A stretch of 64,000 nucleotides of DNA, taken from NCBI GenBank assembly GCA_038246545.1, contig JBBRVW010000025.1:3864-67863 (forward strand), written 5' to 3'. The position numbers were made by a program, and so were the translations under genes. Source of the stretch: Actinomycetes bacterium. Lineage in GTDB: Bacteria > Actinomycetota > Actinomycetes > JACCUZ01. Positions 35,861 through 40,704 of this stretch are shown here, piece by piece. The notes under the pieces were generated by a model. The model did not search any database, was not told where the DNA came from, and saw only the letters and a program-made list of their open reading frames with translations. Each line of letters starts with the position of its first letter. Within the stretch, counting starts at the first letter, position 1.

Positions 35861-37492
35861 GTGCGCCTGCCCCGCCCGCGCACCCGCCTCCTGGTGGGTG
35901 CCGCCCTGCTCGCCGTGATCGGCGTGGTCCTGCTCACGACCCGGCCCGCCGCCCCGCTCGCGCCGCTGCGCCGGGGCCCGACCGCCGGCGCGGCGCGCGC
36001 CGGCATCAGCCGGATCAAGCACGTCGTCGTGGTGATGCAGGAGAACCGGTCCTTCGACTCGTACTTCGGCACCTTCCCCCGAGCCGAGGGCTTCCCCCGC
36101 GCGCCGGACGGCTCGATCGACGTGTGCCTGCCGAGCCCGATCCGCGGCGGCGGCTGCCTGGCGCCGTACCACGACGTCAGGGACGTCAACGGCGGTGGAC
36201 CGCACGGTCACGCCGATGCCGTCGCCGACATCGCCAACGGAGCGATGGACGGCTTCCTGGCGCGGGCCGAGAAGGCCCGCCTGCACGGCGGCTGCTCGGA
36301 CCCGAACGACCCCGAGTGCCTCAGCGCCTCCGAGCGCGACGTCATGGGCTACCACGACGGGCGCGACATCCCGAACTACTGGGCCTACGCGAAGCAGTTC
36401 GTGCTGCAGGACCACATGTTCCAGCCGAACACGTCGTGGAGCCTGCCGGCCCACCTGTTCACGGTCTCGGAGTGGTCGGCGCGCTGCGGCGACGACGGCC
36501 CCGGCTCGTGCACCAACGAGGTGGGACACCCGGGCGACCCGCCGGACTTCAACACCGCCCGGCACCCGAACGCGCAGCCTCCGACGTACGCCTGGACCGA
36601 CCTCACCTACCTGTTGCACCGGGCGCACGTGTCGTGGCGCTACTACGTCGCGAAGGGTGACGAGCCGGACTGCGCGAACGACACGCTGCTCACCTGCCCG
36701 CGGGTGCCGCAGCGCGCGAGCACCCCCGGCATCTGGAACCCGCTGCCGTACTTCACGACCGTACGGGACGACGGGCAGCTGAAGAACATCGTGTCCGTGC
36801 AGCACTTCCTCACCGCCGCGCAGACAGGGCAGCTGCCGTCGGTCAGCTGGGTCGTGCCGTCCGAGGCGGTCAGCGAGCACCCGCGGTCGCCGGTCAGCGC
36901 CGGGCAGTCGTACGTCACCGGGCTGGTCAACGCGGTGATGTCCGGACCCGACTGGGCGTCGACCGCGATCTTCCTCACCTGGGACGACTGGGGCGGCTTC
37001 TACGACCACGTCACGCCGCCGGTCGTCGACGCCAACGGCTACGGGCTGCGGGTGCCCGGCATCGTCATCAGCCCGTACGCACGGCGCGGGTACGTCGACC
37101 ACCAGACCCTGAGCTTCGACGCCTACGTCAAGTTCATCGAGGACCGCTTCCTGCACGGGCAGCGGTTGGACCCCGCGAACGACGGGCGTCCCGACCCGCG
37201 GCCCGACGTGCGGGAGAACGACCCGCAGCTGGGCGACCTGCTCGCGGACTTCGACTTCGGTCAGCCGCCGCAGCCACCGCTGCTGCTGCCGGTGCACCCG
37301 GTGACCGACCTGGTGGCACCGCCGCCGGACGAGGCGGGCGCGGCCACGGCGACAGCCACCGCCACGGCTCAGCCGGCGGCCACGCCGAGCTGCTCGAGCA
37401 GGCCCTCGACCCGGCGGCGCACCTCGTCGCGGATCGGCCGCACGTCCGCGACGCCCCGCCCGGCCGGGTCGGCCAGCACCCAGTCGAGGTAG
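35861..37492 (+). CDS. Phosphoesterase family protein (phospholipase C / acid phosphatase AcpA type), membrane-anchored or secreted
   Basis: 543-aa ORF. N-terminal [40 protein letters not shown] signature and [11 protein letters not shown]. The last ~40 codons overlap the convergent arsC, so the true C-terminus is unclear. Confidence 0.85.
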
Positions 37493-37785
37493 GTCTTGCC
37501 CGGGAAGAACGGGCACTCGTCGCCGCAGCCCATGGTGATGACGTAGTCGCTCTCGCGGACGGCGTCGGTGGTGAGCACCTTCGGGATCTCGGCCGAGAGG
37601 TCGACACCGACCTCGCGCATGGCCTCGACCACGGCCGCGTTCACGGTGTCGGCGGGGGCGGTGCCGGCGGAGCGCACCTCGACGGCGTCACCCGCGAGGT
37701 GGGTGAGGAAGCCGGCCGCCATCTGCGAGCGGCCGGCGTTGTGGACGCAGACGAACAGCACGCTGGGCCTGGGCGAGTTCGTCAT
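37369..37785 (-). CDS. arsC: Arsenate reductase, LMW-PTP type
   Basis: 138 aa from ATG 37785. [18 protein letters not shown] (CX5R-S P-loop). ATGA overlap with the MIP channel gene. Confidence 0.9.
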
Positions 37786-38492
37786 GCGAGGACCTCCGTC
37801 GTGACCGGACCGGGGACGAGCAGGCGGGCCAGGCCGAGACCGACCGCTCCGCCGATCACCTGCGCGACCAGGAAGCCGGGCACCGAGCCCGGGGCGATGC
37901 CCGCGAAGGTGTCGGAGAAGACCCGGCCGGCCGTGACGGCCGGGTTCGCGAACGAGGTGCTGGCGGTGAACCAGTACGCCGCGCCGATGTAGGCGCCGAC
38001 GGCGGGCGCGGCCAGCGCCGCGCGGCCGGTCCGCAGCAGCAGCACGACCAGCAGGACCAGACCGGCGGTGGCCACCATCTCGCTGACGCCGAGCCGCCAG
38101 CCGTCGCGGTCGGTGGTCGCCAGCTCGGTCACGGGCACGGCGTACATCACGTTCGCGAGCACGGCCCCGGCCACCGCTCCGACCGTCTGCACGCCCGCAT
38201 ACGCCACCGCGTCCCGGGCCGCCAGCGCGCCCGGCTGCCCGCGGCTGTCGAGCCACAGCACCACGGTCACCACCGGGTTGAAGTGCGCGCCGGACACCGG
38301 CGCGAGCACCGCGATCAGCACCGCCAGGCCGAGAGCCGTGACGAGGGAGTTCTCCAGCAGCTGCAGCCCCACGTCGTCGGGCGAGAGCCGCTGCGCGGCG
38401 ATGCCGGAACCCACGACCACGGCGACCAGGAGCCCGGTACCGAGGCCCTCGGCCAGCAGCCGGCGGGGCAGCGCCGGGACCGCCGTCAGCAC
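37782..38492 (-). CDS. MIP/aquaglyceroporin family channel (AqpS-like arsenite channel)
   Basis: GTG 38492 (the ORF opens further upstream). NPV and NPA boxes GAHFNPVVT and SFANPAVT. Six TM segments. Confidence 0.85.
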   Translation of the reverse strand: MLTAVPALPRRLLAEGLGTGLLVAVVVGSGIAAQRLSPDDVGLQLLENSLVTALGLAVLIAVLAPVSGAHFNPVVTVVLWLDSRGQPGALAARDAVAYAGVQTVGAVAGAVLANVMYAVPVTELATTDRDGWRLGVSEMVATAGLVLLVVLLLRTGRAALAAPAVGAYIGAAYWFTASTSFANPAVTAGRVFSDTFAGIAPGSVPGFLVAQVIGGAVGLGLARLLVPGPVTTEVLA

Positions 38493-38842
38493 GGTCGTCG
38501 CGGGACGTCGCTGCGGCCGGCGTCGTCGAGGCGGCCGACCAGCTCGCGCAGGTCGTGCAGCGCGCCGGGCCGGAGCCGGTAGTAGACGAAGCGGCCACAC
38601 GGCTCGGTCGCGACCAGGCGGGCCTGTCGCAGCGCGCGCAGGTGGTGGGAGACCAGCGTCTGCTGGAGGTCGAGCTCGTCCTGGAGGTGGCAGACGCAGA
38701 GCGACTCGCGACCGAGCAGCTCGAGGATCCGCAGCCGGACCGGGTCGCTCACCGCCCGCATCGTCTCGGCGTCGGCCGGCGTCGTACCAGCGGCGGTTGG
38801 TGTCACCTCCGCAGGAGACACCAACCGCCGCTGGTGGGTCAA
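38486..38842 (-). CDS. arsR: ArsR/SmtB family metalloregulator
   Basis: DPVRLRILELLGRESLCVCHLQDELDLQQTLVSHHLRAL. The annotated start is a weak TTG at 38842, and a 19-bp hairpin lies inside the first 20 codons. ATG 38761 (MRAVSDPVRL...) is an alternative start. Confidence 0.8.
   Translation of the reverse strand: MTHQRRLVSPAEVTPTAAGTTPADAETMRAVSDPVRLRILELLGRESLCVCHLQDELDLQQTLVSHHLRALRQARLVATEPCGRFVYYRLRPGALHDLRELVGRLDDAGRSDVPRRPC
38786..38835 (-). other. 19-bp perfect inverted repeat with a 12-nt loop (ACCAGCGGCGGTTGGTGTC...GACACCAACCGCCGCTGGT)
   Basis: Arms are 38786..38804 and 38817..38835. It sits between the Cys micro-ORF stop and the arsR ATG 38761. It is either an intrinsic terminator/attenuator without a U-tract or a protein-binding palindrome. 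Confidence 0.6.
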
Positions 38843-38868
38843 ACGAACACCTGGTGAACGCCGGCGCC

Positions 38869-38919
38869 TCAGCAGCAGCCCGGCTCGCAGCAGGTCGTGG
38901 TCTCGCAGCAGTCGTCCAT
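38869..38919 (-). CDS. Micro-ORF encoding the 16-aa Cys-rich peptide MDDCCETTTCCEPGCC
   Basis: ATG 38919 is preceded by GGGGAGGTG with a 6-nt spacer. TGA at 38871..38869. All third positions are G/C. Three vicinal Cys pairs. It is in frame with the ArsI/CadI-like gene, 12 codons after its TGA. Confidence 0.45.
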   Translation of the reverse strand: MDDCCETTTCCEPGCC

Positions 38920-38955
38920 GACGGTCACCTCCCCTCGGGTCCTCGCGTCGCCGCG

Positions 38956-39426
38956 TCAGCAGCGGGCCGACGAGGCGGCAGCCGTGTCCGACGACGAGCA
39001 GCAGGTGCCGTCGGACGCGCCCGGGCCGGGGCCACCGGTCGTGGCCCCCTCGAGGTCGGCGCCCGCGTCGGCCAGCACCGTGTAGACCTCCCAGCGCTCC
39101 GCCCCGGGCCCGGTGACCCAGACCTTGTCCTGCACGGCGTAGCAGCAGGTGGTGCCGTCCTCGACCCGGGTCGCGAGCCCCGCGCCGGCCAGCCGACGGG
39201 TGGCGGCGACGACCTCGCCGGTGCTCGCCACCTCGACCCCGAGGTGGTTCAGCGAACCGCCAGCGCCCGGGTTCTCGACGAGGACGAGCGTGAGCGGGGG
39301 CTCGTCGAGGGCGAAGTTGGCGTAGCCGGGCCGGCGCTTGGCCGGCTCGGCATCGAACAGCCGGGAGTAGAAGACGACGGCTTCGTCGAGATCGTCGACG
39401 TTGAGCGCGAGCTGGACTCGGGACAC
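38956..39426 (-). CDS. ArsI/CadI family VOC-fold metalloenzyme (C-As lyase / cadmium-induced protein type)
   Basis: GTG 39426 is preceded by GGAGGA. VSRVQLALNVDDLDEAVVFYSRLFDAEPAKRRPGYANFAL...HLGVEV...GTTCCYAVQDKVWV (vicinal Cys pair). Cys-rich tail DGTCCSSSDTAAASSARC. Confidence 0.85.
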   Translation of the reverse strand: MSRVQLALNVDDLDEAVVFYSRLFDAEPAKRRPGYANFALDEPPLTLVLVENPGAGGSLNHLGVEVASTGEVVAATRRLAGAGLATRVEDGTTCCYAVQDKVWVTGPGAERWEVYTVLADAGADLEGATTGGPGPGASDGTCCSSSDTAAASSARC

Positions 39427-39439
39427 GGGTCCTCCGGGG

Positions 39440-39640
39440 TCAGGCGCAGCAGACGCTGCGGGACGCGGTGCCGGCCGGCCGGCGCAGGCTGGCGCGCAGG
39501 GCGGCGGCCACGCCAGCCGGCAGGGCGAGGCGGGCGGCGGCGCGGCGCCGAGCTGCCCGGGCCAGCCGGGCCTCGTCGGCCTCGCGCAGCAGCCGGTCGA
39601 TCCGCGGGGCGGCGGTGTCGGACAGGTGGGTGGTGAGCAC
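39440..39640 (-). CDS. Possible small ORF (66 aa, Ala/Arg-rich, ends ...SRSVCCA) immediately upstream of the ArsI/CadI-like gene
   Basis: GTG 39640 is preceded by AGGGG with a 5-nt spacer. 63 of 66 third positions are G/C. The stop lies 13 nt before the arsI-like GTG. No family recognised, and the composition is also typical of spurious high-GC ORFs. Confidence 0.35.
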   Translation of the reverse strand: MLTTHLSDTAAPRIDRLLREADEARLARAARRRAAARLALPAGVAAALRASLRRPAGTASRSVCCA

Positions 39641-39660
39641 GAGAACCCCTTTCGAGATCG

Positions 39661-39678
39661 CATCGACGTTCGTCGATG
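39661..39678. promoter_or_regulatory. 8-2-8 perfect inverted repeat CATCGACG-TT-CGTCGATG in the divergent arsR2 / arsI-like intergenic region
   Basis: Lies between the minus-strand ORF start (39640) and the arsR2 GTG (39734). A second palindrome AGACGTCT follows at about 39700. Confidence 0.45.
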
Positions 39679-39733
39679 GATCGAGGGTGCCGCATACATA
39701 GACGTCTGTCAATACGTTGGGTAGGGTCTCCCC

Positions 39734-40096
39734 GTGCCGATCTCGACCCGTCCGCTGCTGCCGCTGCTCGAGGAGCCGGCCGAGCTGTGTTGTCCGCCGC
39801 TGGCGCAGGCGCCGCTGTCCGAGGCCGACGCCGAGGAGCTGGCCTCGCGCCTCAAGGCGCTCGCCGACCCGGTCCGGCTGAGGCTGCTGTCGCTCGTGCT
39901 CGCCAGCGGCGAGGCGTGCGTCTGCGACCTCACGGCACCGGTCGGGCTGAGCCAGCCGACGGTCAGCCACCACCTCAAGGTGCTCGCTGACGCCGGGCTG
40001 CTGGCCCGCGAGAAGCGGGGCAGGTGGGCCTGGTACCGCCTGGTGCCCGGCTCGCTAGGGGACCTGGCGGCGGTGATCGGCTCCAGCGCGCGGTGA
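39734..40096 (+). CDS. ArsR/SmtB family metalloregulator with N-terminal CC and alpha3 CVC motifs (CadC/CmtR-like)
   Basis: 120-aa ORF. EEPAELCCPPLA, ALADPVRLRLLSLVLASGEACVCDLTAPVGLSQPTVSHHLKVL. Confidence 0.9.
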   Translation: MPISTRPLLPLLEEPAELCCPPLAQAPLSEADAEELASRLKALADPVRLRLLSLVLASGEACVCDLTAPVGLSQPTVSHHLKVLADAGLLAREKRGRWAWYRLVPGSLGDLAAVIGSSAR

Positions 40097-40113
40097 GGCT
40101 GCTGCCGGCCCGG

Positions 40114-40704
40114 TCAGGGTGTGGGTGCGGCCCCGGCGTAGAGCGCCTGGCCCCACTGGGTGACGCCGAAGCTGTTGATGATCGCCTGCGACCCGGGGCT
40201 GTCGAGGTAGTCCGCCAGCTTGCGGGCGCACGCCGTGCGCGCGTCCGGGTGCGCGACGACGATGACGCTGTACGGGTCGGCGAGCCGGTCGCCACCCTGG
40301 GCGATGACGCGCAGCTTGAGCTGCTTCTGCAGCCGCAGGAACGTCGCCCGGTCGGTCAGTGCGTACGCCTCGTCGGTGGACGCCCGCATCAACGTGGGCG
40401 GCATCACGGCGTGGGTCGCGACGTACCAGGGCTTGGTCGGCCGCACCGCGGCCGCTTTCCACAGCGACCGTTCGAGGACCGCGCTGCCGGACCCGTCACC
40501 GCGGCTGCGGAACGCGTCGGTCGTCGTCGCGAGCACGATGTCCGTCGGCCCGCCGGCGCGGGGCGCCGGGTCGCTGTCCCCGCCGCACCCCACCAGCGCC
40601 ACCGGCACCACCAGCGCTGCCAGCGCGACGGCGGCGACGCGGATGGCCACGCGTCCGGCGGCACGTGAGGGGCGGGCGGTGGCTCTCCGGCTGGTGAGGG
40701 GCAC
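40114..40704 (-). CDS. Shortened TupA-like (tungstate/oxyanion PBP) lipoprotein, orphan
   Basis: GTG 40704 gives the signal ...VAAVALAALVVPVALVGCGGD. FRSRGDGSGSAVLERSLWKAA...YALTDRATFL...DPYSVIVV resembles TupA. About 90 aa between the N-terminal LATTTDA and FRSRGD seem to be missing. There are no permease or ATPase genes nearby. Confidence 0.6.
   Translation of the reverse strand: MPLTSRRATARPSRAAGRVAIRVAAVALAALVVPVALVGCGGDSDPAPRAGGPTDIVLATTTDAFRSRGDGSGSAVLERSLWKAAAVRPTKPWYVATHAVMPPTLMRASTDEAYALTDRATFLRLQKQLKLRVIAQGGDRLADPYSVIVVAHPDARTACARKLADYLDSPGSQAIINSFGVTQWGQALYAGAAPTP

Follow-up and report, generated by a model that had tools for sequence, protein, structure and literature searches.

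The stretch of DNA analysed here, 64,000 nucleotides (nt) of actinomycete sequence that we call the window, carries an arsenic resistance locus in which a short open reading frame (ORF) of 16 codons, hereafter the micro-ORF, lies just downstream of arsI/cadI. A divergent repressor gene, arsR1, faces the conserved ORF66, arsI and the micro-ORF, which in this order are predicted to form one operon, and a unit with arsR2, a MIP-type channel gene and arsC follows (Table 1). The micro-ORF reads ATG GAC GAC TGC TGC GAG ACC ACG ACC TGC TGC GAG CCG GGC TGC TGC TGA (38919..38869, minus strand). Its predicted peptide contains three CC pairs, six cysteines among 16 residues (37% Cys), and is acidic and free of aromatic residues. 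G or C occupies the third position in 16/16 sense codons. The GGAGGTGA motif of its Shine-Dalgarno (SD) region occurs only twice in the 64-kb window. An earlier note, made from the letters of the window, had reported this ORF with its SD, 6-nt spacer and G/C third positions, the 36 nt (12 sense codons, same frame) between the TGA of the ArsI/CadI-like gene (38958..38956) and the ATG, and the TTCCY motif and Cys-rich end (...DGTCCSSSDTAAASSARC) of the upstream protein; each of these features was recovered exactly as described. Gene callers left the micro-ORF uncalled in every contig examined.

With 72% GC, the window has many Cys-rich stretches in its off-frames: six-frame translation gave 15 places with at least 5 Cys per 16 residues. 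The micro-ORF is the sole complete ORF of at most 30 codons in the whole window that combines an SD-like sequence with at least four cysteines. In 100 Markov-1 random sequences, the mean number of such ORFs was 0.26 with at least four Cys and 0 with at least six. The locus is identical in three independent assemblies of the same species (L098-L100, our locus numbers), so that an assembly artefact can be dismissed. A scan of the spacer upstream of the micro-ORF for consensus promoters and terminators gave no match, with a tool that covers actinobacterial signals poorly. In the homologous loci described below, 33-47 nt separate the arsI stop from the micro-ORF start, and this interval gave no promoter match.

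Homologues were sought in three surveys. Among 80 ArsI loci from species-representative genomes, a homologous ORF was present right after arsI only in the two closest, L001 (encoding VDACCDETTDCYETGCC) and L002 (encoding MDDCCDETTDCCEPGCC). A scan of metagenome contigs with a degenerate DNA pattern, derived from the C-terminal half of the micro-ORF, yielded eight further copies on high-GC soil contigs. The other 9/17 pattern hits were rejected as unrelated: eight lie on low-GC contigs, and the match in L089 (GC 0.56) has TGG and no stop. On the low-GC contigs L091 and L092 (GC 37%), L084, L087, L096 and L097 the matches are in longer ORFs that end in VRCCESGCC or WCCDCGCC, in an unrelated context; these hits may have arisen by chance or belong to other proteins that end in Cys pairs. 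Finally, eight close ArsI proteins picked regardless of the micro-ORF were looked up, and the micro-ORF was present in 4/8 (L101, L104, L107, L111) and absent from L105, L106, L108/109 and L110. Altogether we obtained 14 DNA versions and 13 peptide versions from related uncultured Actinomycetota, a sample of about a dozen lineages in one ArsI clade. The peptides, of 15-17 residues, share the pattern M-D-x-C-C-x(3-5)-C-C-E-x-G-C-C followed by TGA, and none has an aromatic residue except for one Tyr in L001. The earlier note had proposed a comparison of this intergenic segment in related genomes, and among the carriers the SD and the CC-CC-CC ORF proved to be kept in all 14 versions. In a neighbour-joining tree of ArsI all carriers fall into one clade, in which the non-carriers L003 and L004 are nested, suggesting that the micro-ORF arose once and was later lost from some lineages. 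L103 and L108/L109 agree in their flanking genes (arsI and, after it, convergent LMWPc/ArsR-LMWPc) and differ by presence or absence of the micro-ORF, a polymorphism among close relatives.

Searches with the peptide identified no known family. Scans of Pfam and NCBIfam gave a single sub-threshold match, to keratin B2 (E = 0.19). A protein search with a 66-residue concatenate of four variants found only P0001, at a non-significant E = 0.8, and was insensitive, as it missed the fusions P0032 and P0039 described below. P0001, an 83-residue protein from a Logan assembly, contains a repeated CCEPGCCEPG...CCEPGCC segment. The region had no blastn match among plasmids, and an Rfam scan of 38300-40200 returned only generic hairpin noise far below gathering scores. 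No description of the peptide was found in the literature searched, and no matching family or annotation.

Comparison of the versions strongly supports the view that the micro-ORF is a real, separately initiated and selected coding gene. The (G)GAGGTG sequence, the 6-nt spacer and the start codon (ATG or GTG) are kept in 14/14 versions, between flanks that cannot be aligned, and every indel within the ORF is a multiple of three and thus removes or adds whole codons. At least 13 changes are synonymous and 15 are non-synonymous, where 17% synonymous would be expected (binomial p = 2e-4). Because part of the C-terminal half is fixed by the pattern used in the scan, this count was repeated on the eight versions ascertained through ArsI only; it gave 10 synonymous and 9 non-synonymous changes (p = 3.5e-4). 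The pooled pairwise pN/pS was 0.26. Nucleotide identity to L101/L104/L107 is 98/92/94% for the micro-ORF and thereby exceeds that of the ArsI core (96/85/85%); it is 88/71/69% for the ArsI tail and 81/52/50% for the spacer before the SD. Besides the cysteines, D, E7, T8, E13 and G15 are conserved in the peptide. RNA structure was rejected as the cause of this conservation: the consensus fold reached -7.2 kcal/mol with unfavourable covariation, and the single sequences folded worse than their shuffles (z +1.1 to +2.5). The low stability of the SD-plus-ORF segment is as expected of an open initiation region. Two readings had been offered in the earlier note, a free-standing thiol-rich metalloid-binding peptide translated from its own SD, or the severed end of a longer Cys-rich tail of ArsI. 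The comparative evidence upholds the first as regards a separate, selected coding gene; metal(loid) binding by its product is something that we infer.

The second reading was assessed by comparing the frames of arsI and the micro-ORF across loci. They agree in the window, L104 and L111, and the micro-ORF is shifted by +2 in L001, +1 in L002 and +2 in L107. Being in frame in 3 of about 11 unfused loci, roughly the chance 1/3, the arrangement in the window is incidental, and the variable frame indicates that the micro-ORF is initiated on its own. In L101, arsI terminates at a TGA inside the micro-ORF SD, and the micro-ORF differs from that of the window by one synonymous DNA change, the peptide being identical. 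Alignment of L101 2940-2995 with window 38956-39010 revealed a 7-nt indel, at 92% ArsI identity, that shifts the frame, removes the terminal Cys of ArsI and brings its stop into the SD. Frameshifts thus change the ArsI tails, and the micro-ORF remains fixed. A recent severing of the tail by a nonsense mutation does not agree with the variable frame, with the SD and start codon present in every copy, or with L090, where the micro-ORF exists without arsI. Selenocysteine insertion or programmed read-through of the in-frame TGA was also considered and rejected, since it found no support beyond the chance-level in-frame frequency.

Kinship between the micro-ORF and the ArsI tail is nonetheless apparent in a deeper sense. 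A CC pair was found in the C-terminal tail of 119/120 close ArsI homologues, within the last four residues in 112/120, and the tails of the sister clade end in DGTCCTxxxGCC. Like the micro-ORF peptide, ArsI/CadI tails are composed of D/E/T/S/G/A and vicinal CC, and they end in CC with zero to two further residues; every micro-ORF ends in GCC. The micro-ORF moreover lies where the ArsI tail ends, and in two loci it has become that tail: in P0032/L102 the ArsI tail and stop are deleted, and in P0039/L103 CGA replaces TGA, so that ArsI and the peptide are fused in frame at the DNA level. Both fusions keep the internal SD and start codon. Orthologues reading straight through, which the earlier note had named as the sign of a truncated tail, are represented by these two fusions only, and of the severed-tail reading the relationship to the tail stands and the nonsense-mutation origin does not. 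The tails change rapidly through indels and frameshifts. The micro-ORF is far better conserved and, in the window and most carriers, forms a cistron of its own with an SD, a start codon and a variable frame; in the window TGA, SD and ATG intervene between it and the VOC domain, and covalent continuity occurs only in L102 and L103. The micro-ORF therefore resembles an ArsI tail in compact form that can be detached, with fission and fusion in both directions. The solved ArsI structures, chains of 123-126 residues, match the core only and have no tail. Tail-less ArsI is catalytically active, hence the role of the tail would be accessory.

The partners of the micro-ORF are constant upstream and variable downstream, as far as the compared loci indicate. 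Directly upstream of the micro-ORF, or fused to it, arsI was found in 21/22 loci, the 22nd being L090 (L082 is cut too close to tell). Past the stop of the micro-ORF, a strong GC-rich hairpin was present at every locus, and what follows is arsR2-MIP in the window and L085, MIP in L094, a YcaQ-like gene in L002, convergent arsC-like genes in L103 and VapBC in L090. Between arsR1 and ORF66 lie two palindromes of the form ATYGAC-N4-GTCKAT, a motif for which 0 chance matches are expected. Among 100 fetched loci it was confined to the ArsR1-arsI intergenic regions, in 31 loci and often in two copies, and it is probably the operator of the Rv2640c-like ArsR subfamily; a candidate operator and regulon are thereby identified for these repressors. 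In L090 two such operators are followed after about 20 nt by the SD and micro-ORF, without ORF66 and arsI, and an unrelated VapBC-like pair lies downstream. The sequence next to the SD is shared with L093, and L090 is probably a deletion derivative of an L093-like operon. Even so, the arrangement in L090 shows that the micro-ORF is kept there as the sole gene behind a promoter predicted to be controlled by ArsR1.

Putting together the observed anatomy and conservation of the micro-ORF, the codon-level selection, its linkage to ArsI and ArsR1 and its fission and fusion with ArsI, we favour, with moderate confidence, the explanation that it is a real gene with translation of its own, placed last in an arsenite-regulated operon, and that its peptide acts as an ArsI tail in trans. 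Arsenite would cause ArsR1 to leave the two operators, upon which ORF66, arsI and the micro-ORF would be transcribed, and ribosomes would initiate at the strong SD and ATG 36 nt past the arsI stop. The acidic six-thiol peptide could then bind trivalent arsenicals (three sulphurs per As(III), up to two As(III) per peptide) or Cd(II) and other soft metals, and would buffer arsenicals or relay them to or from the Cys pair of the ArsI active site and on towards the MIP channel. In this way it might serve ArsI as the tail does in cis, by buffering or relaying substrate or product. The micro-ORF would thus encode a thiol-rich metal(loid)-binding peptide, a trans form of an enzyme tail.

Several points weigh against this explanation. 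The micro-ORF is dispensable, being absent from the close relatives L003, L004, L105, L106, L108 and L110, and it was found in only 4/8 of the look-ups ascertained through ArsI and in 2/80 of the more distant genome loci. All carriers are uncultured, known as metagenome-assembled genomes or metagenome contigs, and for the eight loci derived from the pattern scan the conservation of the C-terminal half is partly due to ascertainment. Each of the two fusions is known from one metagenome contig, and for one of these the coverage is only 1.8x. If the peptide replaced the tail, fewer CC pairs might be expected in the ArsI tails of carriers, and the trend is weak (3/12 with the micro-ORF and 43/73 without, p = 0.057, uncorrected for phylogeny). 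Translation in vivo, a stable peptide, metal or metalloid binding and hand-over are all deduced, binding from composition and context.

If made, the peptide would rank with the shortest thiol-rich peptides that are known to be encoded by genes, and would add an unannotated new component to arsenic resistance operons. Gene calling and the family databases would then have overlooked a strongly selected cistron in loci of a type that is well studied. The near-universal Cys-rich tail of ArsI/CadI could be understood as a module open to detachment, loss and renewed fusion, a natural gene fission and fusion experiment at the scale of 16 codons. If metalloid binding is real, biosensing or bioremediation would also gain a tag of minimal size that binds As(III)/Cd(II) and can be encoded genetically.

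ArsD offers a partial parallel for a hand-over of this kind. It binds As(III) via Cys12-Cys13-Cys18 (CC-x4-C), has a C-terminal CC-x5-CC and hands As(III) to a partner. The CCETTTC spacing of the window's peptide equals that of Cys12-13-18, and other variants have CC-x3-C or CC-x5-C. ArsD has about 120 residues and a thioredoxin-like fold and serves the ArsA ATPase, unlike the 16-residue peptide, which has no homology to it and no arsA among the neighbouring genes examined (arsR, arsI, MIP, arsC, phosphoesterase). Phytochelatins, (gamma-Glu-Cys)n-Gly, are likewise short acidic thiol chelators of As(III) and Cd(II) with a similar composition of acidic residues and Cys; they are made enzymatically from glutathione, in contrast to the micro-ORF peptide, which is encoded by a gene and has adjacent Cys-Cys pairs.

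Among the alternatives, the peptide could be a free-standing mini-metallothionein, a general sink for As, Cd and soft metals under ArsR1 that would be tied to ArsI only by the shared promoter, which we regard as unlikely. Its composition (37% Cys, acidic, aromatic-free) would suit such a role, and L090, with the micro-ORF alone behind ArsR1 operators and no arsI, is the clearest counterpart of the cyanobacterial smtB-smtA pair, in which a small Cys-rich, aromatic-poor product is likewise placed under an ArsR/SmtB repressor with a divergent promoter-operator region. The two operator-like palindromes would give the micro-ORF of the window the same placement. The cadI gene of M. tuberculosis, moreover, owes its name to induction by cadmium. 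This alternative fits less well with arsI being upstream or fused in 21/22 loci, with the restriction to one ArsI clade, with the existence of ArsI fusions and with the resemblance of the peptide to ArsI tails, and L090 itself looks like a secondary deletion. Bacterial metallothioneins (SmtA/BmtA, MymT) have about 50-56 residues. The peptide, of 15-17 residues, has CC pairs only, no His and no zinc-finger fold, and showed no sequence or profile similarity to them in Pfam and NCBIfam. The smtA and metallothionein systems belong to Zn or Cu homeostasis, whereas the genes that accompany the micro-ORF encode an organoarsenical lyase and a sensor of the As(III) type.

A leader function, the main rival and one that we hold to be rather improbable, would place the effect in the act of translation and not in the peptide. 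As an upstream ORF, the micro-ORF would pause ribosomes through its Cys codons or an As(III)-bound nascent chain, alter the hairpin and so control arsR2-MIP-arsC. Arsenite and cadmium deplete thiols, which speaks for this reading. A strong hairpin follows every micro-ORF, with 12-19 bp, GC-rich and of unrelated sequence from locus to locus, and in the subclade of the window, where the hairpin is conserved, the start codon of arsR2 lies at the edge of its loop and has no SD. There is also a precedent in cysteine-responsive attenuation by polycysteine short ORFs in mycobacteria (10.1101/834739; PMC9094748), which, like the micro-ORF, are unannotated actinobacterial ORFs with at least two consecutive Cys codons that gene callers had missed (Canestrari et al. 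2020). Those ORFs are leaderless first cistrons before cysteine-metabolism genes, their Cys tract pairs with the next ribosome-binding site, and their peptide sequence is unimportant (10.1101/834739). Unlike these members of the 'Cys ribulon', the micro-ORF has a strong SD in 14/14 versions and is the last cistron after arsI, and none of the variable genes downstream of it is a Cys-metabolism gene. Pairing of the Cys tract with the next ribosome-binding site was not found, the ORF region being less structured than its shuffles and the hairpins self-contained. A classical attenuator was also rejected, as no alternative pairing with the ORF was found and the distance from stop to hairpin varies from 11 to 32 nt. 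The hairpins are non-homologous, the downstream gene is not conserved whereas the upstream partners ArsI and ArsR1 are, the conserved non-Cys residues and codon-level selection point to the peptide, and natural fusion to ArsI would make no sense if the ORF were a leader. In a more specific variant, to which we give only a slim chance, the nascent six-Cys chain, ending in GCC-UGA, would be cross-linked by As(III) or methylarsenite (MAs(III)), and stalled termination or re-initiation would open the hairpin over the arsR2 start. If true, such a ligand-sensing arrest peptide for a toxic metalloid would couple metalloid load directly to the arsR2-MIP-arsC export module.

That the micro-ORF has no independent product and serves mainly as a C-terminal extension of ArsI, reached by read-through of the TGA (in a TGA-C context) or by frameshifting, appears very improbable. 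It is in frame in the window, L104 and L111, and it is fused to arsI in L102 and in L103, where CGA stands in the stop position; against this, its frame differs from that of arsI in L001, L002 and L107, the arsI gene of L101 ends inside the SD, the share of in-frame loci is close to the chance 1/3, and a perfect SD with ATG or GTG is found everywhere, even in the fusions and in L090 without arsI. A non-functional remnant, either a decaying old ArsI tail or a chance ORF from CTGCTGC repeats in high-GC DNA, is hardly credible: Cys-rich off-frame stretches are indeed common in the window and many close relatives lack the ORF, but its conservation exceeds that of the ArsI catalytic core, next to a spacer of 50-52% identity (L104/L107), it shows synonymous enrichment, in-frame indels and a conserved SD, and no comparable ORF was found in the window or in the random sequences.

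The coordinates of the locus are collected in Table 1.

Table 1. Features of the arsenic resistance locus, listed in ascending window coordinates (strand "." where none applies).
Feature	Position	Strand	Remarks
arsC, LMW-PTP-type arsenate reductase	37369..37785	-	Pfam PF01451, TIGR02691/02689
MIP/aquaglyceroporin gene, As(III) channel type	37782..38492	-	Pfam PF00230; called in L098/L101
arsR2	38486..38806	-	start probably GTG 38806, at 3' edge of hairpin loop
Perfect 19-20-bp hairpin, 12-nt loop	38785..38836	-	overlaps arsR2 start; z = -6.7
Conserved post-ORF segment GTTCACCAGGTGTTCGTTTGACC, 23 nt	38837..38859	-	candidate -35 region or operator of arsR2-MIP-arsC unit
Micro-ORF, 16 codons + TGA	38869..38919	-	encodes MDDCCETTTCCEPGCC, then stop
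Spacer, arsI stop to micro-ORF start	38920..38955	-	36 nt (12 sense codons, same frame)
Shine-Dalgarno sequence GGGGAGGTG	38926..38934	-	6-nt spacer to micro-ORF ATG; GGAGGTGA complementary to 16S 3' end
arsI/cadI, 156 residues	38956..39426	-	GTG start; VOC-fold C-As lyase family; catalytic CC and Cys tail
ORF66, conserved 66-residue first cistron	39440..39640	-	ends in SVCCA, then stop
ArsR1 operator-like palindrome	39662..39677	.	ATCGAC-GAAC-GTCGAT
Second operator-like palindrome	39698..39713	.	ATTGAC-AGAC-GTCTAT; contains TTGACA (-35-like hexamer)
arsR1, divergent, 120 residues	39734..40096	+	ArsR/SmtB repressor; N-terminal CC + CVC motif

The arsI/cadI product belongs to the VOC metalloenzymes: it scored 194.7 bits with NCBIfam NF041414, above the curated cutoff of 116, and has the catalytic CC. 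It matched the structures of the Thermomonospora curvata ArsI C-As lyase (5C4P/5D4F) with 152 bits and TTCCY aligned. ArsR1 scored 99.7 bits with the NCBIfam HTH_metalloreg model and 106.8 bits with the Rv2640c-family model, the latter below that model's cutoff; its best match in the PDB was the As(III) repressor of Corynebacterium glutamicum (6J0E), with the vicinal Cys aligned.

ORF66 was called by gene callers in L099, L101, L104, L107 and L111. It had no Pfam or NCBIfam family match, and only 3 matches were found in a representative library of 1.84 billion proteins. Homologues are present in L001, L081, L083, L093, L094, L101, L104, L107, L108, L110 and L111. The N-terminal part is helical and R/A-rich (..LLREADEARLARAAR..ALRxSL..), and a Cys motif closes every homologue (VCCA, VCCT, ACCV, CPTC or CVTC before the stop). 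With this ending, three products of the predicted operon terminate in cysteines.

On the other side of the micro-ORF, the GTTCACCAGGTGTTCGTTTGACC segment was found in the window, L085, L094, L101, L102, L104, L107 and L111. The hairpin that comes next marks the end of the arsI-micro-ORF segment, and its arms vary by compensatory changes in L104 and L107. The order GTTCACC-N3-TGTTCGTTTGACC, then a 19-20-bp hairpin with compensatory arm changes, was observed in the window (38785-38859, minus strand), L101, L102, L104, L107 and L111. A conserved arsR2 start, (A/G)TG ACA, without an SD, stands at the 3' edge of the loop, so that the first seven arsR2 codons are paired with the 5' arm of the hairpin. 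With its TTGACC-N18-T(C/G)TNCT-N6-start geometry, the region is similar to a promoter from which arsR2 would be transcribed as a leaderless mRNA; another possibility is that arsR2 translation is blocked by the hairpin in read-through transcripts. The ATG at 38759-38761 (minus strand), which gene callers chose as the arsR2 start (a 91-residue product in L098), is CTG in L101 and L107; as it is not conserved, arsR2 is probably mis-started in the annotations of the window's species.

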